Assembly (NCBI GenBank): GCA_007131125.1
Contig: SLRE01000107.1
Coordinates: 1 to 38,609, forward strand
Reading direction: 5' to 3'
Origin: Bacteroidales bacterium
GTDB lineage: Bacteria; Bacteroidota; Bacteroidia; Bacteroidales; UBA7960
Length of the DNA: 38,609 nt
Of the stretch, positions 3,161 to 14,502 are shown in pieces. A program made the translations under genes and the position numbers. The notes under the pieces are model-generated. The model was not told the origin of the DNA, ran no database searches, and saw only the letters and a program-made list of their open reading frames with translations. The stretch's first letter is position 1; every line of letters starts with the position of its first letter.

Positions 3161-3191
3161 TCCAAATTTGATCAACCCAAAATTTTCCAAT

Positions 3192-5324
3192 ATGAGCTCT
3201 CATCTGTTCAACCTCCGTTATTTTGCTTTTTTCCTGCTGTTTTTTGGTGTTTTCATCACAGTTAATGCACAGGAAAAAGAAAAGCTAAACACTGCAGGTT
3301 TTAAAGAAGCAATTTTTGAGGAACCTGTGATCTTTTCCAAATCTGCTCCTGAAAGCAGGGAAGATGCGATCTGGTATGAAAGTTTTTCGGAAACTTCATC
3401 TCAGGAATGGGAGTTTGTGGATTTGGCCGGAAATGGGGGATGGGAACATACTTTTTCCGGATCGCAGGGGCAGTTTGCCGGAGAAGGGCTTCCGATCAAT
3501 TCACCTTCTTCCGAAGACGGTTTTATGATCCTGGATGCCGATCTGATCAACACCCCTTATGACCCGGGAAACCCCATTATTCCCGATGCATATATTCAAA
3601 GCCCTGCAATTGATCTTGGCGATCACTCTTATGTGATCCTGGAATTTTATCACTACTTCAGGTATTTCAGCGGGGCGGAGCTTTTGGTTGGCGTCAGTAC
3701 CGACGGTGAAAACTGGACCGAATGGAATGTGAAAGGAAATGTGGGGGTTAACCAGTTTTCGCCCAACCCTTTAGTGGAGCAAATCAATATTTCTGAAGTT
3801 GCCGGGGGCGCCAATGAGGTTTATATCCGGTTTCATTTCCGGGGAAGCCACTGGTATTTCTGGCAGGTTGACGATGTTTCCATCAAACCCATGACGGCAA
3901 ACGACCTTTCTGTTGAAAGGGTAAAAACCGGGTTGTATCATCGCATGCCTGAATTTCAGGCTTTGCCCTTCCGTTTTAAAGGGATCATCGAAAACCTTGG
4001 ATCGGCCACCCAAACCAACGCCTACCTGGAAGTGGATATTAACGAAGGTTTGTTTACCGCCCAAAGTGAAGTTTTTGATGCTCCTTATCAGTTTTATGAT
4101 ACGGTGATCGTTCCTGAAACCTTTCTTCCCCAGGAAAAAGGTCAATACGATGTGGTCTTTACTGTCAACCAGGATCAGGAAGATGACCATCCTGAGAACA
4201 ACGTTTATGAGCAGTCTTTTTTTATTACCGATACGGTATATGCCCGCGATAATGACGTGCTTACCGGCGGGGCCCATGCCGGAACAGGAGAACCCTATAT
4301 TATGGCCCTGATGTATGAGGTGCCGCAGCCTGCACAACCCACTTCCGTATCTTTTGTGCTTTCTTCTCTGAACCAGCCCGGAGTTGTGGGCCGTGAGGTA
4401 AGGGTGGTGCTTTATGAGATTACTGAAGAACTGGACGCTATTACTCTGGGTGCATCGGAGCTTTATACCATTACATCAGATGACATCCCCCAGGATGTCG
4501 GAGAGGGCCCGGTTTCGGTCACCCTGCCTCTGCATCCTGCCGATGGAAAAGGAGATGAGATCATCAATCTAAAAAAAGACCGGGAGCTGCCCGAAATTGG
4601 CGGATATTACCTTGACGGCCCCCTTAAAGGAATGCCTAAGCAGTACCTTGCCGCTTTCCAGCAGTTCGGAGGGACTCCCACCATTTTTATAGGCACAGGT
4701 CCGGCCTCTTATCAACCTTCTGACATCTGGTATATGTTCACCGATCAGTGGTATGCAATTTATCCGGATACGCGCTGGCCTATGGTTCGCTTTAATGTGA
4801 AGGAGGGAGAATGCCCGTGGCTTTTTGTTGATGCCGAAATCACCGATGCAACCGGTATGGATAAAAACGACGGTAGCATTGTTTTAACCGACCTTGATGG
4901 GGGAGAACCACCCTACACTTTTTTATGGGATGATCCGGATGCCTCCACCACACAGAATATTCATGGGCTTTATCCCGGCGATTACACTGTATTGATTACA
5001 GATGCCAATGACTGTGAATGGGAACGGGTATTTACCGTTTCTGTAACCACGGGTATATTCGAACCCGATGCCATCAGCAGCCTGGAGGTGTTTCCCAACC
5101 CTGTAAAAGACCGGCTGCAGGTTCGCTTTTTTATGGAAAAACCCGGAAGTTTGGATGTCGGCCTCTATAGCCTGACCGGTAATAAGCTCTTTTCAAAATC
5201 CCGGGAAGATTTTACCGGAGATTTTGAAACAGACTTTTCTATGGGCAACCTTCCATCAGGGGTTTACCTTCTGAAGATTGAAGCCAATGGGCAGGCAGTT
5301 ACCAGAAAGATCCTCAAAAACTAG
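3192..5324 (+). CDS. T9SS-secreted multidomain protein (N-terminal jelly-roll/MAM-like domain, SprB repeat, Por secretion C-terminal domain)
   Basis: Signal peptide MSSHLFNLRYFAFFLLFFGVFITVNAQ from the ATG at 3192 (the track ORF starts at an upstream TTG at 3168). A SprB-type repeat is present: NDGSIVLTDLDGGEPPYTFLWDDPDASTTQNIHGLYPGDYTVLITDANDCE. The C-terminus LEVFPNPVKDRLQVRF...GVYLLKIEANGQAVTRKILKN is a type A T9SS sorting domain. Confidence 0.85.
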   Translation: MSSHLFNLRYFAFFLLFFGVFITVNAQEKEKLNTAGFKEAIFEEPVIFSKSAPESREDAIWYESFSETSSQEWEFVDLAGNGGWEHTFSGSQGQFAGEGLPINSPSSEDGFMILDADLINTPYDPGNPIIPDAYIQSPAIDLGDHSYVILEFYHYFRYFSGAELLVGVSTDGENWTEWNVKGNVGVNQFSPNPLVEQINISEVAGGANEVYIRFHFRGSHWYFWQVDDVSIKPMTANDLSVERVKTGLYHRMPEFQALPFRFKGIIENLGSATQTNAYLEVDINEGLFTAQSEVFDAPYQFYDTVIVPETFLPQEKGQYDVVFTVNQDQEDDHPENNVYEQSFFITDTVYARDNDVLTGGAHAGTGEPYIMALMYEVPQPAQPTSVSFVLSSLNQPGVVGREVRVVLYEITEELDAITLGASELYTITSDDIPQDVGEGPVSVTLPLHPADGKGDEIINLKKDRELPEIGGYYLDGPLKGMPKQYLAAFQQFGGTPTIFIGTGPASYQPSDIWYMFTDQWYAIYPDTRWPMVRFNVKEGECPWLFVDAEITDATGMDKNDGSIVLTDLDGGEPPYTFLWDDPDASTTQNIHGLYPGDYTVLITDANDCEWERVFTVSVTTGIFEPDAISSLEVFPNPVKDRLQVRFFMEKPGSLDVGLYSLTGNKLFSKSREDFTGDFETDFSMGNLPSGVYLLKIEANGQAVTRKILKN

Positions 5325-5447
5325 CTTTATTTTTCCGGGTTGATATTTGCAGGAATGAATTAATTGCCATAACTTGCAATCTGCTAAAAACTTTTTTCCG
5401 GGGCAATGCCCAGGATACTACCATTTTGTAATCAATCCCCGGCCAAC

Positions 5448-6305
5448 ATGAGATCGTTATTCCCGGTAACCATTGCCCTGATACTGCTGGCTTCCTGCGG
5501 GCAAAATAATGAAGAGGCGGAGCGCCTCCGTCAGGAAAAGGCTCTATTGCAACAGCAGCTCGAAGAAAAAGAAAAAACCCTGAATCAGTTCATTGGCACC
5601 CTCAATGAGATTGAAGAAAACCTGCAGTCCATCAGGCAAAAGGAAGATGCCATTTCTCTGGAAGCGGGTAAGGAACTGGAAGTAAACCAGGAGCTTGTCG
5701 GAAACATAAACGAAAACATTCGTAAGATTGGTGAATTAATGGAGAGGAACCGCCGGTTGATGAACTCCCTTCACGCAGAGCTGAGTCAGTCCAACCTCCA
5801 GATTAAAGAATTTGAGCGGATGGTGCGCAGGCTTCATTATCAGCTTGAGGATAAAGAAACGGAGATATTAATTTTGCGTGATGATCTGGGGCATCTGAAC
5901 CTGAGGGTTGAGTCTCTCACCGCCGTTGTTGACACCCTTCAAATCCTATCCCGCCAGAAAGACCGGGTAATTGATGAAAAAACCCTGGAACTCAACACCG
6001 CTTTTTTTGCCATGGGTTCAAGGAGGGCCCTCCGCGATCAGGGCATCATTAAACCCGAGGGGGGATTTTTAGGAATAGGGAGAGTTCACCGTTTAAAGCC
6101 GGACTTTAAACCTGACTTCTTTACCCGTATTGACATGGAGCTCACCAGAGAAATCATCATCCGGGGCAAAAATCCCGAATTCATTACGGTTCATCCGGCA
6201 GGAAGCTGGAGGTGGCAGCAGGACGGAGAAACCTTGCAATTGCAGATCCTGCAGCCTGATAAATTCTGGAGTACATCCCGCTACCTGGTATTGGAAACCG
6301 AATAG
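5448..6305 (+). CDS. Coiled-coil lipoprotein of unknown function
   Basis: MRSLFPVTIALILLASCGQ has a lipobox with Cys. About 150 aa of heptad-like E/L/Q/K-rich sequence follow, then a globular C-terminal domain. The ATG at 5448 is preferred over the track start at 5406 because it places the signal peptide at the N-terminus. Confidence 0.65.
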   Translation: MRSLFPVTIALILLASCGQNNEEAERLRQEKALLQQQLEEKEKTLNQFIGTLNEIEENLQSIRQKEDAISLEAGKELEVNQELVGNINENIRKIGELMERNRRLMNSLHAELSQSNLQIKEFERMVRRLHYQLEDKETEILILRDDLGHLNLRVESLTAVVDTLQILSRQKDRVIDEKTLELNTAFFAMGSRRALRDQGIIKPEGGFLGIGRVHRLKPDFKPDFFTRIDMELTREIIIRGKNPEFITVHPAGSWRWQQDGETLQLQILQPDKFWSTSRYLVLETE

Positions 6306-6316
6306 TCTTGTTTTGA

Positions 6317-7936
6317 TCAGAACCCGCTCAGGTCCATGGTTACTGTTGGAATCAATAACAGAAAACCCAGCAGGATCATGATCACGATCAAAGGCCATAC
6401 CCATTTAACCCATTTGTGATAGGGGATGCGTGCCACACCCAGCACTGCAATAAGTACCCCGGAAGTTGGGGTGATCATGTTGGTAAATCCGTCTCCAAAC
6501 TGGAAGGCCATAACTGTTGCCTGCCGGGAAATTCCGATCAGGTCGCTGAAAGGAGCCATTATGGGCATGGTAATGGCTGCTTTGGCCGACCCTGATGGGA
6601 TTACAATATTTACAATGGTTTGAATAACGTACATGACACCAACGGAGGCAACATTGCCAAACTGCCCAAGGGTCCTTGACAGGCCATAAAGGATGGTGTC
6701 GATTATGCCGCCGTCTTCCAGCACCACAATAATCCCTCCGGCCAGGCCTACGATAATGGCTGCAGACATGATGTCTTTTACTCCGTCAAGAAAAGAGTTA
6801 GCAATGTCGTTGGCCGATTTGTTGATGGAAAGCCCTGCGGCAATGCCCATTCCGAGGAAAAGGGTGGCAATTTCCATTACATACCATCCATAACCCATTA
6901 CCCCTACAATCAGGAAAAGAATAGTGTAGGCCAGCAACAGCAATACAAAAAAGTGTACCGACTTTTTTAGTGTGAAATATCCTGCCAGGGCAAAAATTAC
7001 CGTTACCACCGGTAAAATGGTCATGGTTACTGATGAGTTTCCAATTGTTAGTGTGGTGATGGGGTAAAGAAACGAAAAGATTGCCAGGATAAGGGTAACA
7101 AACCCATAAACGATCCACGCCATTTTTGGGGTGTAATAAGTTACATCTTCGGGGTCGTCAGATTTGCGGTTGCGCCAGTAGCTGTCTTCCTCATACATGA
7201 TGGAGGATTTGGGGTTTTTCCTTACTTTGGCCACATACCTGAGCACAAAGGTAATCCCAACCAGGTTGATTACCATCCAGGCAAACAGCCGGTATTCGAT
7301 CCCTGAAAAAAGAGGCAGGTCTGCAAGCCCCTGTGCAATGCCTATGGTAAAGGGGTTTAAAATGGCCCCGGCAAAACCAAGGTGGGCAGCGATATATACC
7401 ATACACACCCCGGTAATGGAGTCATAGCCCATAGAAATAGCAAGCGGGATCAGGATGATAATAAATGCAATGGTTTCTTCACTCATTCCGAAAATGGCCC
7501 CAAAAGCACTGAACAGCAGCATGATCATTACAATAATGATATTGTCCACACCTAGTTTTTTCAGGAAGCGGTTTCTTTCAAGCTTTCGGGCGTATTTAAG
7601 AAAGGAAAGTATCCCAACATCTATTGCCTTGGTTTGATTCATGATCCAGAAAGCTCCCCCGATCATCAAAATAAAAACGATGATGTTTGACTGGCGGACA
7701 AATCCGTTGAAAAGGGCCGACAGCACCTGCCAGGTTTGAATCTGGCTGTCAACGGTGGTTTGGTAGGGTTCGGGAAGATCTTCCTCAAAATAGAACACCA
7801 TGCTGGTGCGCTCCTTACCGTCAATTACTACTGTTTCTTCTATGTATTGCCCCGGGGGTATAAACCAGGTTAAGATGGCGGCAATAACAATGATACCAAA
7901 AACGATAACGTAGGTGTGCGGAACTTTTTTTAACAT
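6317..7936 (-). CDS. yfcC: YfcC-family (DcuC/ArcD-like fold) inner-membrane transporter
   Basis: A 539-aa polytopic membrane protein. The N-terminus MLKKVPHTYVIVFGIIVIAAILTWFIP and the overall pattern are typical of YfcC family proteins. The start lies 21 nt after the stop of the cyanophycinase gene on the same strand. Confidence 0.8.
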   Translation of the reverse strand: MLKKVPHTYVIVFGIIVIAAILTWFIPPGQYIEETVVIDGKERTSMVFYFEEDLPEPYQTTVDSQIQTWQVLSALFNGFVRQSNIIVFILMIGGAFWIMNQTKAIDVGILSFLKYARKLERNRFLKKLGVDNIIIVMIMLLFSAFGAIFGMSEETIAFIIILIPLAISMGYDSITGVCMVYIAAHLGFAGAILNPFTIGIAQGLADLPLFSGIEYRLFAWMVINLVGITFVLRYVAKVRKNPKSSIMYEEDSYWRNRKSDDPEDVTYYTPKMAWIVYGFVTLILAIFSFLYPITTLTIGNSSVTMTILPVVTVIFALAGYFTLKKSVHFFVLLLLAYTILFLIVGVMGYGWYVMEIATLFLGMGIAAGLSINKSANDIANSFLDGVKDIMSAAIIVGLAGGIIVVLEDGGIIDTILYGLSRTLGQFGNVASVGVMYVIQTIVNIVIPSGSAKAAITMPIMAPFSDLIGISRQATVMAFQFGDGFTNMITPTSGVLIAVLGVARIPYHKWVKWVWPLIVIMILLGFLLLIPTVTMDLSGF

Positions 7937-7957
7937 TTAGCAAAGAATTTTTCGGTA

Positions 7958-8827
7958 TTATTTTATTGAGAACTTTTCTCCGGGCAAATAAATATCCAGC
8001 TTCAGGTTTTTTGCCCCCAGCTTATGCTCATAATGATGGGCAGAGTGCTCCGGATTACTGTAAACCAACACCTGGGAAACGCCAACCACTTCTGCCGAAT
8101 CTCCTCTTACCAGTATTGCCGTGGACTCATCAATTCCGATGCCCGGCAGGTGCGGATACTCGATAACGGCGCTGATAAGCCGGTTGTGCCGGCTTCTCCA
8201 GACAAAATGCTGGTCGATGATGGCGGTTTTCAGCAGGCCAAGTCCATCGGCTATTTCAATGTTTTCAGACTCTATGGTGCGGAAAGTGGAGCGATAATCT
8301 TCGTAACGGAGTTCATCTCCTGTGATCATTTTTTCGCTCATTACGGCGGCACCGGCACTGGTGCCTGCAATCAAGGCTCCCTGCTGATAGGCATGATGAA
8401 TGGCGTCAAAAATTGGAGTTTCCCTTACAATTTCCATAAAACGGTTCTGGTCCCCTCCGCTGATGTAAATCAGTTTGGCTTCCCTCATCACTTCAATCCA
8501 TTCCTCTTTTGGGTCCTTTTCGAGCTCAAAGTTGTAGCCTTTGATGCGCCCGGGTTCTATGCCCAGTTCCAGGAAAGATTCGGAAGACCAGATAATGGCC
8601 GAGTCCGGCACAGCGCTCGACATGGGCAGGATCACTATGTCGCCACCCTCATAAATTCCTGCTTCCTGAGAAAGCCGGTCCATTAACTCAAGAGAACGGT
8701 GGCCTCCGCCAATAATAAACAATGACCCTTTGGGCTGGTCCTGTTCACGGTTATTTTGTTGATTGGGCTGCTGGCAGGAAAGAAAAACCAGGCATGCGAA
8801 AAAAAAGACAAATACTTTCCGAATCAT
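7958..8827 (-). CDS. Cyanophycinase-like S51 serine peptidase, lipoprotein-anchored
   Basis: Lipobox FLSC (Cys18). S51/cyanophycinase blocks are present: LFIIGGG, ISGGDQNRF, GTSAGAAVM (Ser157), IDQHF (His207), GIDESTA (Glu234). The His-to-Glu spacing of 27 residues is the same as the CphB catalytic triad as I recall it. Confidence 0.85.
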   Translation of the reverse strand: MIRKVFVFFFACLVFLSCQQPNQQNNREQDQPKGSLFIIGGGHRSLELMDRLSQEAGIYEGGDIVILPMSSAVPDSAIIWSSESFLELGIEPGRIKGYNFELEKDPKEEWIEVMREAKLIYISGGDQNRFMEIVRETPIFDAIHHAYQQGALIAGTSAGAAVMSEKMITGDELRYEDYRSTFRTIESENIEIADGLGLLKTAIIDQHFVWRSRHNRLISAVIEYPHLPGIGIDESTAILVRGDSAEVVGVSQVLVYSNPEHSAHHYEHKLGAKNLKLDIYLPGEKFSIK

Positions 8828-8845
8828 TTTTTTGTATGTGGTTTA

Positions 8846-8878
8846 ACGCAGGAGCCAGGTCTGGCCTGGCTCCTGCGT
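8846..8878 (-). other. Perfect 14-bp GC-rich stem-loop between the PKD lipoprotein gene and the cyanophycinase gene
   Basis: ACGCAGGAGCCAGG (8846-8859), loop TCTGG, CCTGGCTCCTGCGT (8865-8878). There is no U-tract on the minus strand (followed by TAAACCACATAC). It is therefore either an attenuator/mRNA-processing hairpin or a U-tract-independent terminator. Confidence 0.6.
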
Positions 8879-8891
8879 ATTGGTTTTAAGC

Positions 8892-9785
8892 TTACTCCGC
8901 AAATACTTCTATATCGGTAATAAAGATCTGGAACATGTCGGTTACATCATAATGCCTGACGGCAATATAGATCTGCTCGCCTTTATAATCGGATATGTCA
9001 ATTACCCTCTCAAATGCGGTCCAGTTTGGGGTATCCTCAGTAAATCTTTCATCAAAGACCTTTTCAAAATCATCTACCTCCATTTCTGCATTGGAAATAA
9101 AGATACCATAGTTTTCCTGTCGAAACTCTTCGCCCGAAGCTGTCACCCCGACATGATACCTCAGCATGAGGGTTTCCCCTTCGCCTACTGCGGAGGCATC
9201 TATTAATGGTGTGATCAACCAGTTATCCGGGGTAAGGGCTCCGTCCTGGGAATCCCATGAGGCACTTCTTACGATTGGGCCGTATTCTTCCTCATCGGGC
9301 TGGTAAAACCAGGTGTGTCCGTCACCATCAAGGTCCCATACCGTAAATTGTGGAGGAATATCTTCTACAGAAGAAAAGTCTTCCAGGAAAGGAACCGGCA
9401 CTGCACCCACTACAAGGGTAAGGGTTGTGGTGTGCTGCAACTTATTGTAGTGCAGGTCTTTTTCACTTTCCGCAGTCAGGGTAACCCTATACTGACCGTA
9501 TTCTTCATAAATGACATAGGGATTTTCTTCGGTGGATTCCTCTCCGTTGCCAAAATCCCAATGATAGCCTACGGCATTGATGGATTCGTTGATAAACTGC
9601 ACCCCGAAAATGATTTCCCCGGTTTGATCGTGGGTAAGGGTGTCTACTTCATAAGTAAAGTATGCCTGTGTGCTGGCCTCCGGCACAGGGAAGTCGTCGT
9701 CGTTACATGAGACTACCGCCACGGTTATTGCCAGCAGCAGGGACAGCAGTCCTAAATTGACTTTTATTTTTTTCATTGATTTCAT
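8892..9785 (-). CDS. Surface lipoprotein with PKD domain and choice-of-anchor-J domain (SusE/F position)
   Basis: Lipobox AVVSC. A PKD-like block is present (FINESINAVGYHWDFGNGEESTEENPYVIYEEYGQYRVTLTAES). The choice-of-anchor-J hallmarks follow (WDLDGDGHTW..., SASW, PDNWLITP, YIAVRHYDV...ITDIEV). The start lies 19 nt after the SusD stop. Confidence 0.8.
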   Translation of the reverse strand: MKSMKKIKVNLGLLSLLLAITVAVVSCNDDDFPVPEASTQAYFTYEVDTLTHDQTGEIIFGVQFINESINAVGYHWDFGNGEESTEENPYVIYEEYGQYRVTLTAESEKDLHYNKLQHTTTLTLVVGAVPVPFLEDFSSVEDIPPQFTVWDLDGDGHTWFYQPDEEEYGPIVRSASWDSQDGALTPDNWLITPLIDASAVGEGETLMLRYHVGVTASGEEFRQENYGIFISNAEMEVDDFEKVFDERFTEDTPNWTAFERVIDISDYKGEQIYIAVRHYDVTDMFQIFITDIEVFAE

Positions 9786-9804
9786 TGTTTTCTGAGTTTA
9801 CAGA

Positions 9805-11163
9805 TTAATAACCTTCATTCTGATACATTCCCTCGTGATCATTGGCAAGGATTTCTGATAAAGGAATGGGAAATAGCAACTGATGCTCGCTTGTAACATT
9901 TTCAAGGACTTCCATGGCACGATTGGTGCGCACCAGGTCGAACCAGCGGTGCCCTTCAAAAGCAAATTCTTTCTGGCGCTGAATTTCCACTTCCTGGAGC
10001 AAAGCCGGATAATTGGAGGTGGTAACCGGCAATAGTCCAGCCCTTTCCCTGATCGCATTGATATCTTCACGGATCAGGTCAAGGTTGGCATCTTCTTTCA
10101 GGATCATGGCTTCTGCACGGATCAGGTGCATTTCGGCCAGGCGGAAGATGTAAACATTATCGGTTCCGGTTTGTATGTCGGTATATTTATTGCCATAGGG
10201 GTCAGCACCTTCAAAACTTATTGAAGTTTCCATTCTAAGGTCGTCTTCCGAGAAGGAATCAATAAATTCCTGCGGAGGGGCTACCTCGTATCTTCCTGAC
10301 AAAGCGGTAGGGAAGAAATAGAAGCCTAAGCGGTTGTCTTCCTGCTCATTGAAGGCAAGTTCAAAAACAGATTCCATACTGCCTCCGTTAATGAAAAGGT
10401 TGGCATAGTCCGGCTCCAGGTTCAGGCCGTAGTCTTCGATAACATGGGTAGCAAATGCAATGGCGTCATCCAGATGGGCTTCGTTATCACGGATAAAATA
10501 GTCGTGAAGCTTAACGCGGGCCATCAGGGCCTGTGCGGCGGGTTTTGAGGCTCTTCCCATGCTTATTTGTTCGGTTATATGCTCCATGGCAAATTCCAGG
10601 TCATCATAAATGAGCTCCAGGACAGTTTCCATACTTTGTCTTGGAATGTTGAGGTCTGCATCTCCTGCGGTTGCCGGTTCGGTTCTGACAGGAATCGGGC
10701 CAAACAACCTCATCAGGTTGTAATGATGTAAAGCCCGCAAAAACCTTAATTCGGCCATTGCCCGGTTTTTACTGGCGTCATTCATCAGGTCCGGGTCAAC
10801 ATCCGGTATTGCTGCCAATGTATTGTTTACCCGGTTCAGGGCAATGTAGATGCTTGACCATATGCTTTCTACATATACGTTATCGGCAAGGATGTTATTG
10901 CTGTTAACCTGGTCGTAACCGTCGTGTGTTCCGGTCCACCTCAGGTTGTCAGCGGCCAGATCTCCAAAAATGAGGTAATGGCGAGCATAATATCCGTTGC
11001 TTTGCATGGCTGAATAACAGCCGTTAATGGCCCGTTCTACATCCTGGGCGGTGTTGATGGCTTCATCGGAGGGGATGCTGTGATACGGATCGGTGTCCAG
11101 TAAATCCTCACAACCGGTCAACCCCCAGATAAGCAGTGCAAATAATATGATTGATTTTTTCAT
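9805..11163 (-). CDS. SusD/RagB-family outer-membrane nutrient-binding lipoprotein
   Basis: MKKSIILFALLIWGLTGCEDLLD lipoprotein signal from the ATG at 11163 (the track ORF is extended to 11202). A TPR-like helical body follows, with a conserved C-terminal RWFDLVR and a ...NEGY end. It lies 16 nt downstream of SusC. Confidence 0.9.
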   Translation of the reverse strand: MKKSIILFALLIWGLTGCEDLLDTDPYHSIPSDEAINTAQDVERAINGCYSAMQSNGYYARHYLIFGDLAADNLRWTGTHDGYDQVNSNNILADNVYVESIWSSIYIALNRVNNTLAAIPDVDPDLMNDASKNRAMAELRFLRALHHYNLMRLFGPIPVRTEPATAGDADLNIPRQSMETVLELIYDDLEFAMEHITEQISMGRASKPAAQALMARVKLHDYFIRDNEAHLDDAIAFATHVIEDYGLNLEPDYANLFINGGSMESVFELAFNEQEDNRLGFYFFPTALSGRYEVAPPQEFIDSFSEDDLRMETSISFEGADPYGNKYTDIQTGTDNVYIFRLAEMHLIRAEAMILKEDANLDLIREDINAIRERAGLLPVTTSNYPALLQEVEIQRQKEFAFEGHRWFDLVRTNRAMEVLENVTSEHQLLFPIPLSEILANDHEGMYQNEGY

Positions 11164-11179
11164 TTTTCTGGGTTTTTTT

Positions 11180-14086
11180 TTAAAGTCCAACATTAATTCC
11201 AACAGAAACCGACCGGGTCTGGGGGTAGGTAAAAAAGTCAGTACCCCTGATCAGGTCGGCATCCCCTGCATAGTTTACTTCGGGGTCCATCCCGGTATAA
11301 TTGGTGAAGGTCAAGAGGTTTTGCCCCGATATGAATACCCTGGCATTTCTGATTCCGATTCTTTCAACTGTCCCGGGGCTCAGGTTATAGCCCAGGGTCA
11401 GGTTTTTAATCCTGAGGTATGAGCCGTCTTCAATAAATCTTGAGGAAATGCGGTTATTCAGATTGGGGTCTGTGGTGGTTGCTCTTGGCATATAGGTAAT
11501 GTCGCCAGGTTGGCGCCAGCGGTCCAGAATACGGGTGGTTTGATTGTCTTCTCCTTTCATGCTTTCAATAAACATCAGGCTGCCGTTATAAATATCGTTT
11601 CCGTATGAAAACTGGAGGAAAACATTCAACTCAAAGGGTCCGTAAAAAAAGTTGTTGGTAAACCCTCCGGTAAAGTCCGGGTTGGGGTCGCCGATTTTCA
11701 TTCTTTCTTCCGAAAAAACGATGTCACCTGTGGAGGGGTCTACCCCATAGCTTTTGTAACCATAGAAAATCCCGATGGGTTCCCCAACCCTTACACTGTT
11801 GCTGGCCCTTCCCAGGTTATCCAGCGGCTGGTCCTTGTAAAGTGCCAGTACCTTGTTGCGGTTCCGGCTGATGTTGAAGTTGGACGTCCATTGAAATTCA
11901 GAAGTTTCAATGTTTACGGTTTTTAAAGTAACTTCAATTCCTCTATTTTCAAGCTCCCCGATATTGGAGGTAATGCTGGAAAACCCAGAGGTAAGGGAAA
12001 CCGGGCGACTGAACAGCAGGTCTTTGGTGTGATTGTTATAATAATCAAAGGTAACATCAATCCTTTCTCCCAACAATGCGAAATTCAAGCCGGCATTGAA
12101 TTGTGTGGTGGTTTCCCATTTCAGGTCGGGGTTGGGCAACTGGGCCGGCGCAATACCGGCTTGTCCCATATAATTGAGTCCGCCCCGGAATAAAGACATG
12201 AAAGCATAGTCGGGAATTCCGTCGTTTCCGGTTAAACCATAGCTGACCCTGAGCCTGAACTCATCAAAAAAGTCAAAAGTTTGGCGGAAAAACTCTTCTT
12301 CGTGCATCCGCCAGGCAACCGATGCGGCCGGGAAAAACCCGTAGCGGTTATCCTGGCTGAATTTTGAAGAACCATCCATCCTGGCACTCAGCGAAAGGAT
12401 GTAACGGTAATCGTAGTTGTATCTGACCTGTCCGAAGTAAGAGTTGATGCTGCGGTCCAGGGCATTGGCATACGCTTCGGTAATGGTGGCGGCATCGCTT
12501 ACATACTGGAAGTTTTCATTCGGAAAATCCACAGCCCTGATGAAGCTGTTCCTTCTCTGGAAAACCTCAAATGAATAACCCAGCAATGCATTTACATTGT
12601 GGGATTCCCCAAAGGTATTGATGTATTGAAGCAGGTTGTTGGAAACCAGGTTCATTACATTGTTCTGGGCTTCCAGTCCAATGCCGTTTGAACGGGCACC
12701 CTGCCTGGTGGTAATGGGGTCGTAACTATGCTCTCTCAAACTCATGTAGTCAACGCTCCATTTTGTATTGAAGGTAAAGTTTTCAAGAAAACGATAATCC
12801 AGGAAAACATTTCCCTGGGTGCGGTAAGAGTGGGCTTCATTGATGGCTTCTTTTCCGATGGCAACCGGGTTGGCATAAAACCCGTCTTCATTATAGGTTC
12901 CATCCTCATTGTAAATGGGGTAAATGGGGGGACGGCTGATGGCCAGGGGCAAAGGGGCATTAATGGAAGCATCACCTTCTACCCTTTTGTTTAGTGAATA
13001 GCTCATCCCAAAACCGGCCCCGATTTCCAGGTTGTCGTTTACCCGGTGGTCCAGATTCATGCGGGTATTGAGCCTTTCATATGAAGTTCCAAGTACAATT
13101 CCTTCCTGGTCGAAATAGCTTCCCGAAACAAAAAACCGGGTTTCGCCAACCCCGCCTCTTGCCGACAATTCATAGTTGGCAATGGGTGCAGTACTCAGCA
13201 CCTCATCCAGCCAGTCGGTGTCAATGGGTGGGTCATGAGCAGGGTCGGTTCCCCGGTATTCGTGCCATTGTTCTGCATTAAGCATCTCCAGTCGGTTCTC
13301 CAGCTGCTGAATACCTATAGAAGAACTGAAGTTGATTTCGGTAACATCTTTGGCTCCTCTTTTGGTTGTGATAAGCACCACCCCATTGGTAGCCCTGGCC
13401 CCATAAATGGCTGCGGCCGAAGCATCCTTCAATATGGTGATGGATTCAATATCCGCAGGGTTAAGATCCGACAAGGCATTGATGCCCTGCCCTGAAAAGC
13501 CAACCTGTCCGTAGTCACCGGTAATCATCGGAACCCCGTCAATAACATAAAGGGGTTCATTTCCTGCGCTGATGGAGCTGCTGCCCCTGATGCGCACAGT
13601 GGTTCCGGCACCGGGTGTTCCTGAATTCTGGGATATCTGCACCCCGGCCGACCGTCCCTGCAGCACTCCATCCACAGTCCTCAGCGGGTTGTCGCGGATG
13701 GCTTCTTCACCCACCACACCAAGGGAGCCGGATATGAGCCGGCTGGATTCGGTTCCGTATCCAACCACTACCACCTCTCCAAGGCGGGCAACATCCATCT
13801 CCATGCCTACATTGATGGTGGTGCGCCCCTCAACAGGAACGTTCTTGGTGACCATCCCCACGTATGAGAAGGTCAGGGTGTCCTTGGGGTTCACATTTAT
13901 GTTGTAGCGCCCGTCCATATCGGTAATGGTACCCCGGGAGGTTCCCTTTACCATCACGGTAACCCCCGGAAGCGAGATATTGTCTTCCATTACGGAGGTA
14001 ACGGTGCCTTCAACGGTTATTTCCTGGCCCATAAGCCCAAGGCCTGAAAATAAAAAGGCAATAAATAAAATAATTTTGTTTTTCAT
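11180..14086 (-). CDS. SusC/RagA-family TonB-dependent outer-membrane transporter
   Basis: The signal peptide is followed by a carboxypeptidase-D-regulatory-like domain (ITVEGTVTS...GVTVMVKGTSRGTITDMDGRYNINV), a plug (GVQISQNSGTPGAG...IRIRG, PLYVIDGVP, DIESITILKDASAAAIYGARATNGVVLITTKRG) and a 22-strand-type barrel. There is no STN/N-terminal signalling extension. Confidence 0.95.
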   Translation of the reverse strand: MKNKIILFIAFLFSGLGLMGQEITVEGTVTSVMEDNISLPGVTVMVKGTSRGTITDMDGRYNINVNPKDTLTFSYVGMVTKNVPVEGRTTINVGMEMDVARLGEVVVVGYGTESSRLISGSLGVVGEEAIRDNPLRTVDGVLQGRSAGVQISQNSGTPGAGTTVRIRGSSSISAGNEPLYVIDGVPMITGDYGQVGFSGQGINALSDLNPADIESITILKDASAAAIYGARATNGVVLITTKRGAKDVTEINFSSSIGIQQLENRLEMLNAEQWHEYRGTDPAHDPPIDTDWLDEVLSTAPIANYELSARGGVGETRFFVSGSYFDQEGIVLGTSYERLNTRMNLDHRVNDNLEIGAGFGMSYSLNKRVEGDASINAPLPLAISRPPIYPIYNEDGTYNEDGFYANPVAIGKEAINEAHSYRTQGNVFLDYRFLENFTFNTKWSVDYMSLREHSYDPITTRQGARSNGIGLEAQNNVMNLVSNNLLQYINTFGESHNVNALLGYSFEVFQRRNSFIRAVDFPNENFQYVSDAATITEAYANALDRSINSYFGQVRYNYDYRYILSLSARMDGSSKFSQDNRYGFFPAASVAWRMHEEEFFRQTFDFFDEFRLRVSYGLTGNDGIPDYAFMSLFRGGLNYMGQAGIAPAQLPNPDLKWETTTQFNAGLNFALLGERIDVTFDYYNNHTKDLLFSRPVSLTSGFSSITSNIGELENRGIEVTLKTVNIETSEFQWTSNFNISRNRNKVLALYKDQPLDNLGRASNSVRVGEPIGIFYGYKSYGVDPSTGDIVFSEERMKIGDPNPDFTGGFTNNFFYGPFELNVFLQFSYGNDIYNGSLMFIESMKGEDNQTTRILDRWRQPGDITYMPRATTTDPNLNNRISSRFIEDGSYLRIKNLTLGYNLSPGTVERIGIRNARVFISGQNLLTFTNYTGMDPEVNYAGDADLIRGTDFFTYPQTRSVSVGINVGL

Positions 14087-14435
14087 TGATTGTTGTTTTG
14101 GTTGTTAGAGAAACAGTTATAAAAAATTACATGAAGCAATACAATCGGTTTTTCCCCAGCAAAAATCAAAAACACCCCGGGAGGGAATACCCTTCAGACG
14201 ACTGCCCGGGCTATCCGTTTTGATTCTGCAGGAAAAACTATGGCTCAGCACCAATGGGGAAGAAACAAATGGAGGTATTTACCATCATAAATAACCGATT
14301 AACCACGCAATAATACTAATTTTTCAGGTTATTTTTTTGAGAATGATAAAGTTTTTTCTTTTTGAAAAGTGAAATAAAATGACGGGAAGCTGTTTTCGGC
14401 CTTAAACCCGGAGAGAGAAAAACATAAAATTGTAT

Positions 14436-14443
14436 TAATTTTG
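14436..14443 (+). promoter_or_regulatory. Candidate -7 promoter box for asnS
   Basis: TAATTTTG matches TAnnTTTG, 60 nt upstream of the ATG at 14503. Confidence 0.4.
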
Positions 14444-14502
14444 TGCCCTGACCAACAAAGAAAAAGTTTTACACGAGACAAATATTGTAAAAGGTTGATT
14501 TC

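Follow-up and report, generated by a model that had tools for sequence, protein, structure and literature searches.

What does a SusC/SusD-type outer-membrane system take up when the sole hydrolase encoded beside it belongs to the cyanophycinase family? The question is raised by a cassette of five genes on the minus strand of contig SLRE01000107.1 (assembly GCA_007131125.1), from an uncultured Bacteroidales bacterium of soda-lake sediment (JGI sample SL_3KL_010_SED; assemblies GCA_003551345.1, GCA_003566495.1). The whole stretch of DNA analysed, 38,609 nt (38.6 kb), is hereafter called the window. Here, I argue that the cassette quite probably serves the uptake and degradation of cyanophycin or its oligomers. 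A system of this kind, organised like a polysaccharide utilisation locus (PUL) around a cyanophycinase and with SusC and SusD (SusCD) as its importer, had been put forward in a preliminary description of the locus; family models, the substrate pocket of the cyanophycinase CphB, and synteny with isoaspartyl dipeptidases and arginine-catabolic genes lend it support. Soda-lake sediment, being a habitat rich in cyanobacteria, fits the proposed function.

The five genes stand in line, separated by gaps of 16, 19, 64 and 21 nt. The list of open reading frames (ORFs), together with domain calls, reproduced exactly the order, coordinates and gaps first reported, as follows:

11180..14086, minus strand: susC, a SusC/RagA-type TonB-dependent outer-membrane transporter of 968 aa
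9805..11163, minus strand: susD, a predicted surface lipoprotein of the SusD/RagB family, 452 aa
8892..9785, minus strand: a predicted surface lipoprotein with PKD and Cleaved_Adhesin / choice-of-anchor J domains, in the SusE/F position
8846..8878, minus strand: a strong stem-loop (RNA folding) that separates the PKD and S51 genes
7958..8827, minus strand: an S51 cyanophycinase-type serine peptidase with a lipoprotein signal, 289 aa
6317..7936, minus strand: yfcC, a predicted inner-membrane permease of the DcuC/YfcC family, 539 aa
14087..14502, minus strand: the 416-nt region 5' of susC, divergent from asnS

The identification of the S51 protein as a cyanophycinase-type enzyme is well supported. 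It scores 158.2 bits with the cyanophycinase equivalog TIGR02069, above the cutoff of 126.6, and 87 bits with Peptidase_S51, whereas the PepE model NF003642 yields 39.4 bits and does not reach its cutoff of 156; a profile search of 7958..8827 thus sides with the family assignment first proposed and not with a PepE-like dipeptidase. Its best matches in the PDB are likewise cyanophycinases (7uqv, 1.3e-29; 3en0, 3e-21; 7uqw, 8.5e-21), an alpha-aspartyl dipeptidase structure being matched at 8e-5 only. Similarity to CphB is moderate (79 bits). In the alignment with 3en0_A, residues Q127, S157, D205, Q206 and H207 of the S51 protein fall on chain positions 121, 152, 192, 193 and 194, and R211, R213, R216 and E234 on positions 198, 200, 203 and 221. 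On the assumption that the 3en0 chain bears a 20-residue tag, so that CphB numbering equals chain position minus 20, they correspond to CphB Q101, S132, D172, Q173 and H174, and to R178, R180, R183 and E201, respectively. The catalytic Ser (G-x-S-A-G), His and Glu are present as S157, H207 and E234. The substrate pocket of CphB, reportedly formed by Gln101, Asp172, Gln173, Arg178, Arg180 and Arg183 (Law et al. 2009), is complete in the window protein. Catalytic and pocket residues are invariant in 34 S51 homologues (55-87% identity), and pocket residues Q127, D205, Q206, R211, R213 and R216 are also invariant in the five short orthologues of an alignment that includes paralogues. In CphB, His174 and Arg178 are needed for binding of beta-(Asp-Arg)2 (PMC12661447).

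The S51 protein begins with a lipoprotein signal, MIRKVFVFFFACLVFLSC followed by QQPNQ, with the lipobox FLSC-QQPNQQ. The lipobox Cys is kept in at least 90% of close homologues, and all orthologues of about 290 aa carry either a signal peptide or a lipobox. Such a signal implies that the enzyme would act outside the cytoplasm, and hence that it would have no role in the turnover of the cell's own granules. CphE of Pseudomonas anguilliseptica and CphB of Synechocystis (3en0) share with it the S51 fold family, the Ser/His/Glu residues and the pocket; CphE is exported from the cytoplasm as well. The setting differs, in that CphE is a freely secreted proteobacterial enzyme and CphB is cytoplasmic, whereas the window protein is a lipoprotein, probably periplasmic, encoded in what would be a SusCD operon. 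A microcin-C immunity peptidase of the MccG type was also considered and rejected, the protein being exported, with a cyanophycinase pocket and in a SusCD context.

The outer-membrane part of the cassette is equally clear as to gene identity. SusC scores 845.5 bits with TIGR04056 (cutoff 368.25) and 65.6 bits with the SusC signature TIGR04057 (cutoff 46.2); Plug, barrel and CarboxypepD_reg domains are recognised by Pfam, and the profile scan found no STN signalling domain in it. The next gene, starting 16 nt after susC, encodes a SusD protein matched by SusD-like_3 (86.6 bits) and SusD_RagB (94.4 bits); its longest ORF, 9805..11202, begins at a TTG, and gene callers use the ATG at 11163, which gives 452 aa. 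The third gene product matches PKD_4 (38 bits), Cleaved_Adhesin (75.6 bits) and the choice-of-anchor J model NF038128 (67.9 bits, cutoff 30), and is a candidate substrate-binding protein.

Pfam scans found no glycoside hydrolase, lyase or esterase in the cassette or in the 25 other large ORFs of the window, as the preliminary description had it, and no cphA, IadA, IaaA or CphZ-type dipeptidase in those 25 either, again in line with it. The sole carbohydrate-active enzyme (CAZyme) of the window is a biosynthetic GT4 glycosyltransferase outside the cassette. Like the classical PULs of Bacteroides thetaiotaomicron (Sus, the levan and dextran utilisomes), the cassette combines susC-susD with a lipoprotein in the SusE/F position, an enzyme and a permease; unlike them, it has no CAZyme, its sole hydrolase is a poly-amino-acid peptidase, and no regulator adjoins it. 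With SusC and SusD present and no CAZyme, it is PUL-like in logic and not a PUL in the strict sense.

Is this arrangement peculiar to one contig? One genome per GTDB species was scanned with two S51 motifs, yielding at least 600 stretches, of which at least 590 encode an S51 relative. For the best 80 of these at least 590 loci (numbered L001 and so on below), ORFs were called and matched to the five window proteins, and the remainder were clustered. The 80 loci come from Bacteroidales, Cytophagales, Flavobacteriales, Chitinophagales, Sphingobacteriales and Balneolales. Both SusC and SusD lie at most 10 kb from the S51 gene in 41 of the 80, and in 35 of the 53 that are well flanked (at least 7 kb upstream and at least 3 kb downstream). 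SusC homologues beside S51 (44 loci) are 33-69% identical to the window SusC, as against about 27-28% for unrelated SusC proteins in the 80 loci. SusC and SusD are in nearly all cases followed by one or two PKD lipoproteins and then S51, and L001 and L002 repeat the five-gene layout of the window exactly. The PKD protein itself has full-length homologues in L001, L002, L085-L089 and L092; in distant loci its position is taken by one or two lipoproteins with PKD and beta-propeller domains. A reciprocal search points the same way: four SusD homologues (54-58% identity), picked on long contigs outside the list of S51 matches, all lie in SusC-SusD-PKD/Cleaved_Adhesin-S51-DcuC cassettes. In L087, L088 and L092 the cassette even occupies the same chromosomal site as in the window, between asnS/rpoN and the aldolase gene. 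The synteny of susC-susD-PKD-S51 is thus kept in related genomes (35 of 53 loci; four of four in the SusD test), the outcome on which the preliminary description had made its proposal depend.

The recurrent neighbours of these loci are informative as to the substrate. They comprise IadA (TIGR01975 beta-aspartyl-peptidase, 494 bits, cutoff 331), IaaA-type Asparaginase_2 proteins (365 bits), ornithine aminotransferase (672 bits, cutoff 378) and an arginase-family protein whose 216 bits with TIGR01229 fall just under the cutoff of 227.6. AsnC regulators and pairs of extracytoplasmic function (ECF) sigma factor and FecR also recur, an ECF sigma factor being found in 14 and FecR in 8 of the 80 loci, and glycoside hydrolases are absent from the 14 recurrent neighbour families scanned. 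IadA or IaaA is encoded in 20 loci, and either of them or an arginine-catabolic gene in 36; in L085 and L089, iadA is the gene immediately 5' of susC and shares its strand. This linkage completes a route from cyanophycin through beta-Asp-Arg to Asp and Arg, and on to ornithine.

Some lineages show extended sets. Ten loci (L036, L041, L042, L044, L047, L048, L051, L053, L061, L067) share a Flavobacterium set of SusC, SusD, ornithine aminotransferase, AsnC, S51, a penicillin-amidase-family protein, a dienelactone hydrolase, DUF3667 and an M28 peptidase; the arginase-family gene joins the extended set only in the related group L049, L073-L075, L077 and L078. In several relatives the cassette is flanked by proteins related to its PKD protein, with Cleaved_Adhesin domains (and CBM_X2) and the C-terminal tail of the type IX secretion system (T9SS), namely at L085:756-4503, L089:13925-16924 and L002:9565-12336; they may be further surface components. 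In L085, a 497-aa M14 carboxypeptidase is encoded between iadA and the T9SS-tailed Cleaved_Adhesin protein.

Loci of this type are known already, as a genomic prediction only, and they are widespread in the Bacteroidota. The preliminary description was aware of no SusCD-coupled cyanophycin system, a statement that has to be withdrawn: according to PMC10206079 and PMC6243061, Ben Hania et al. (2017, Environ Microbiol 19:1134) had named a 'cyanophycin utilization locus' in Salinivirga, and gene context in Citromicrobium sp. JLT1363 had led Tang et al. 2012 (PMC3400609) to propose that cyanophycin is taken up by a TonB-dependent transporter whose gene adjoins that of a cyanophycinase. Similar clusters occur in Flammeovirga pacifica (PMC10206079), and Sharon et al. 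(PMC10206079) point out that in many Bacteroidota the isoaspartyl dipeptidase still awaits identification. In the account given in PMC6243061, Salinivirga cyanobacteriivorans has two S51 proteins, one of them with a Por secretion domain. As for the Citromicrobium transporter, cyanophycin or its fragments are inferred as the substrate from gene context, as in the window; it is, unlike SusC, a classical alphaproteobacterial TonB-dependent transporter, which has neither a SusD partner nor the surface lipoproteins. Literature matches for Flavobacterium psychrophilum and for mutant fitness concern cphA, not uptake. The transport complex of the Salinivirga locus is reportedly homologous to those of typical Bacteroidetes PULs.

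How does the window compare? Going by the cited description, the locus of Salinivirga L21-Spi-D4 resembles it in joining Bacteroidetes cyanophycinase gene(s) to a transporter for environmental cyanophycin, and the contents cited (two S51 proteins, one with Por, iadA, transporter) match those of the relatives retrieved here, with their T9SS-tailed S51, SusCD, PKD, short S51, DcuC/YfcC and IadA/IaaA proteins. By the same description, the window differs in having one S51 gene, no Por/T9SS-tailed cyanophycinase, no iadA and no adjoining regulator; no hybrid two-component, SusR or ECF/anti-sigma gene lies next to the cassette. The combination of cyanophycinase and transporter by which a cyanophycin utilization locus is recognised is found here, the S51 gene lying between susC-susD and yfcC. 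Having neither iadA nor a Por-tailed paralogue, the cassette is a minimal member of the type.

Where, then, would each component act? Acidic residues directly past the lipid-modified Cys are the surface-export signal of Bacteroidetes lipoproteins, as worked out in Capnocytophaga and Bacteroides. Both SusD (...LTGC-EDLLDTD) and the PKD protein (...VVSC-NDDDFP) bear this pattern, whereas the S51 protein (C-QQPNQQ) has no acidic residue at +2 to +5, which suggests, with modest confidence, that the S51 lipoprotein probably faces the periplasm. Its orthologues have a similar non-acidic stretch after the Cys, or a plain type-I signal peptide.

A second S51 paralogue, found in 28 of the 80 loci, bears on the same point. 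In 13 loci it is 575-745 aa long and, where checked, mostly T9SS-tailed; in 15 further loci it has 340-440 aa and is T9SS-tailed or else has an acidic lipoprotein motif, the forms of 426-436 aa being T9SS-tailed when checked and those of about 360 aa having mostly the acidic motif past the Cys (examples: L004:688-2685, L012:534-2771, L005:12171-13451, L049:8853-9944). Retained in these paralogues are the Ser, the His and, of the three pocket arginines, two (Arg213/Arg216); their scores of 51-98 bits lie under the cyanophycinase cutoff. In L089, a 436-aa S51 is encoded three genes downstream. Relatives thus combine a surface S51, SusCD and a periplasmic S51 in a common design that mirrors a PUL. 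Many related loci have such a Por/T9SS-tailed or acidic-motif S51; the window has none, nor do the cassettes of its closest relatives include one, and a surface S51 may be encoded elsewhere in the genome, or else the organism may take up fragments made by others.

The following scheme would account for these features. SusD and the PKD/Cleaved_Adhesin lipoprotein, at the cell surface, would capture cyanophycin or soluble (beta-Asp-Arg)n, and SusC would move the fragments over the outer membrane at the expense of TonB energy. The S51 enzyme, a lipid-anchored protein that probably faces the periplasm from the outer membrane, would cut them to beta-Asp-Arg, which the YfcC/DcuC permease would bring into the cytoplasm; the final release of Asp and Arg would fall to an isoaspartyl dipeptidase whose gene lies at another place in the genome (close relatives have iadA). 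If the short S51 is periplasmic, SusCD must carry oligomeric (beta-Asp-Arg)n and not dipeptides. The detailed version, i.e. a periplasmic S51, import of (beta-Asp-Arg)n oligomers by SusCD, YfcC as the beta-Asp-Arg importer of the Bacteroidota, and a stem-loop that sets the ratio of capture to processing, is offered tentatively, as I would put it at slightly short of an even chance.

The permease is a member of the DcuC/YfcC family (DcuC PF03606, 349.6 bits, cutoff 23.1) and not, judging by its 380.9 bits with the YfcC equivalog NF008611 (cutoff 500), an equivalog of E. coli YfcC. NCBIfam names NF008611 'putative basic amino acid antiporter YfcC'. YfcC adjoins S51 in 18 of the 80 loci, and also in L086-L090 and L092, and IadA-S51-YfcC trios occur in L003, L027, L046 and L065. 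Since no signal peptide is found on IadA, the dipeptide released by the S51 enzyme has to be imported by some other protein before IadA can act on it. Along the same line, YfcC is absent from L034, L070 and L080, where IaaA has a signal peptide and is predicted to be periplasmic, and present in 11 of the 17 loci where IaaA or IadA has none (e.g. L004, L012, L028, L031); that YfcC is missing where IaaA is exported supports a role as dipeptide importer, albeit on small numbers. A reciprocal test centred on YfcC was mixed: of four homologues (74-78% identity), that of L092 lies in a full cassette, that of L090 in an S51-YfcC pair without SusCD, and two in a different context altogether (see below). 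The idea that YfcC imports beta-Asp-Arg is therefore sustained by its recurrent linkage with S51 and IadA, but is weaker as regards a dedicated role, since YfcC proteins of 74% identity occur beside histidine-utilisation genes, a context that the subfamily, on gene neighbourhood, appears to serve too; the permease might carry beta-Asp-Arg, Arg, or basic amino-acid derivatives generally. One locus, L018 (CAZPTG010000092.1), is binned as 'uncultured Spirochaetaceae' and encodes SusC, FecR, an ECF sigma factor, IadA, S51 and a YfcC 65% identical to that of the window; the arrangement is typical of Bacteroidota, and the label is probably a binning error.

Whether the five genes would be transcribed together turns on the stem-loop at 8846..8878. 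The hairpin, pointed out in the preliminary description, is real: its stem has 15 bp, with an RNA dG of -29.6 kcal/mol and z = -8.0. No U-run follows it in the window. Stems of unrelated sequence, each with a T-run of six to eight after it, lie at the same site in L083 (9938-10000), L085 (9925-10000), L001 (9875-9943, the run broken by one G), L086 (11259-11338), L087 (11270-11342) and L092 (8054-8127); L002, L088 and L089 have no stem-loop at the PKD/S51 boundary. Thus a stem-loop marks the module boundary in seven of the ten cassette members examined, with a T-run in six. The approximately 20 nt between the stem and the ATG of S51 leave no room for a promoter, so that expression of S51-yfcC most likely needs read-through. 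Attenuation or partial termination inside the operon, or else stabilisation of an RNA 3' end, is the probable role of the element, which would keep the output of SusCD-PKD high relative to that of enzyme and permease. Upstream of susC, the promoter and a long 5' leader presumably lie in the region 14087..14502. The exact promoter box TAnnTTTG was found in neither of the intergenic regions upstream of susC and of S51. An alignment of upstream regions revealed a single block, CCTGAAAAATTA(G/C)TATTATTGC, common to the window and its 87%-identity relative L083, and an inverted repeat, CCCGGG...CCCGGGG, lies nearer the start codon. A scan of the window with Rfam families, the susC leader included, returned no match.

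A number of observations weigh against the proposed function or its details. By sequence, glycan-type SusC structures are closer to the window SusC than is RagA, the peptide importer: its best PDB relative is 8aa4_A, a 'SusC homolog' (508 bits), and RagA (6sli_B) reaches 279 bits. RagB is absent from the SusD structure matches at E < 0.001. The periplasmic placement of S51 is drawn from the lack of acidic residues past its Cys and from the export rule given above, and D or E does occur at +3 to +5 in a few S51 orthologues. With neither a surface S51 nor iadA/iaaA in the window, the cassette by itself explains neither the surface depolymerisation of an insoluble polymer of 25-100 kDa nor the last hydrolysis. 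The stem-loop is terminator-like in relatives. At the site that holds the cassette in the window, flanked by asnS/rpoN and the aldolase gene, L090 (8122-10620) has S51-YfcC only and lacks genes for SusC, SusD and the PKD protein. Two YfcC homologues of 74% identity lie beside the imidazolonepropionase gene hutI (425-435 bits, cutoff 298) and the gene for formiminotransferase-cyclodeaminase (FTCD), with no S51 near (L091:9001-17677, L093:5221-10617). Finally, full-text literature searches found no biochemical or genetic validation of such loci.

Could the locus then be an ordinary glycan PUL, with its CAZymes elsewhere and with an unrelated peptidase and permease that happen to lie beside it? 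Surface lipoproteins with PKD domains are a common feature of PULs, and the closest solved relatives of SusC and SusD are glycan-type (8aa4/9sje), but the lack of any CAZyme other than the biosynthetic GT4 in 38.6 kb, the lack of glycoside hydrolases among the recurrent neighbour families and the consistent linkage of this SusD clade to S51 make it very improbable. A less remote alternative, which I nevertheless regard as unlikely, is a general scavenger of peptides or isoaspartyl peptides resembling RagAB, in which S51 would be a broad aspartyl peptidase and the substrates Asp-rich or aged (isoAsp) peptides. SusCD-type peptide importers do exist, and RagAB of Porphyromonas gingivalis (6sli) is akin to the proposed system in importing a peptide-bonded substrate; it stands alone, however, with no dedicated peptidase or permease, takes ribosomal oligopeptides made by gingipains, and its RagA is less like the window SusC than is the glycan-type SusC. 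The promiscuity of IadA and IaaA, isoaspartyl dipeptidases from cyanophycin clusters (PMC10206079), would suit such a scavenger, as would the M28, M20, penicillin-amidase and dienelactone-hydrolase genes added in Flavobacterium variants and the occurrence of the YfcC subfamily in histidine-utilisation contexts. It is at odds with the complete CphB pocket (Q101, D172, Q173, R178, R180, R183) kept in the window S51 and its orthologues, with a score above the cyanophycinase cutoff and far from that of PepE (39 bits against 156), and with linkage to arginase-family and ornithine aminotransferase genes, which implies an Arg-rich substrate.

It is similarly unlikely that the cassette, instead of forming one integrated system, consists of two adjoining, separable modules, of which S51-yfcC would act autonomously on small beta-aspartyl peptides entering the periplasm through porins, and susC-susD-PKD, as a frequent neighbour and no more, would import a ligand that need not be cyanophycin. 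The terminator-like hairpin, exactly at the boundary in seven of ten members and with a T-run in six, and the occurrence of S51-yfcC alone in L090 do indicate that the cassette is built of two modules; either a gain or a loss of the outer-membrane part would explain L090. The IadA-S51-YfcC trios without SusCD (L003, L027, L046, L065) and the lack of SusCD within 10 kb in about a third of well-flanked S51 loci agree with separate modules. Functional independence is harder to reconcile with a SusC-SusD-PKD-S51 order kept from Bacteroidales to Cytophagales, Flavobacteriales and Balneolales over SusC identities of 33-69%, with all four independently sampled SusD homologues adjoining S51, and with the lack of promoter space between hairpin and S51 start; moreover, in many loci a second S51 lies upstream of susC, so that the transporter is bracketed by cyanophycinase paralogues. 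The single-operon logic of the preliminary description thus stands as to the usual linkage of the modules, but it has to make room for the stem-loop boundary and for L090. The same holds for the hairpin as a break in transcription, which its terminator-like form in relatives and the separability seen in L090 favour and the usual linkage of the modules disfavours.

The surroundings of the cassette in the window are housekeeping or unrelated genes: a class II aldolase, the GT4 enzyme, a T9SS-tailed protein, a Cbp1-family lipoprotein, asnS, rpoN and recG, as well as TonB, gcvH, the suf operon, xseA and a two-component pair. The T9SS-tailed protein (3168..5324, plus strand, 718 aa) has an SprB repeat and a Por_Secre_tail, its N-terminal 550 aa being without a Pfam match. 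It is kept in the closest relatives only, and its C-terminal sorting domain is the only part that matches anything in related loci; being absent from L087 and L088, it lies outside the conserved cassette. As a hidden surface cyanophycinase it was rejected, as it has no S51 similarity. The gene for the Cbp1-family lipoprotein (5406..6305, plus strand) and that for the 718-aa protein converge on the 3' end of yfcC. A Cbp1-like gene adjoins yfcC in L001 too (238 bits), and unnamed ORFs of similar size hold the same position in L083, L084, L087 and L092.

To sum up, uptake and degradation of cyanophycin or its oligomers is the reading favoured for a cassette whose relatives may well matter beyond a single sediment. 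Cyanophycin is a large nitrogen-rich reserve freed at the lysis of cyanobacteria, and its consumers affect nitrogen recycling in mats, blooms and soda lakes. At least 590 stretches in GTDB species-representative genomes encode a relative of the window S51, and the cassette and its relatives indicate that the SusCD machinery of the Bacteroidota is used for a polyamide as well as for glycans. They also offer a candidate importer of beta-Asp-Arg and a candidate physiological substrate for a YfcC-family transporter. Among the carriers are culturable organisms, namely Gelidibacter algens, several Flavobacterium, Pedobacter, Dawidia, Roseivirga and Elizabethkingia, which makes the prediction directly testable. 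Should S51 prove periplasmic and the imported substrate oligomeric, this would be the first demonstration of a SusCD system taking up a poly-amino-acid that is not made by ribosomes.

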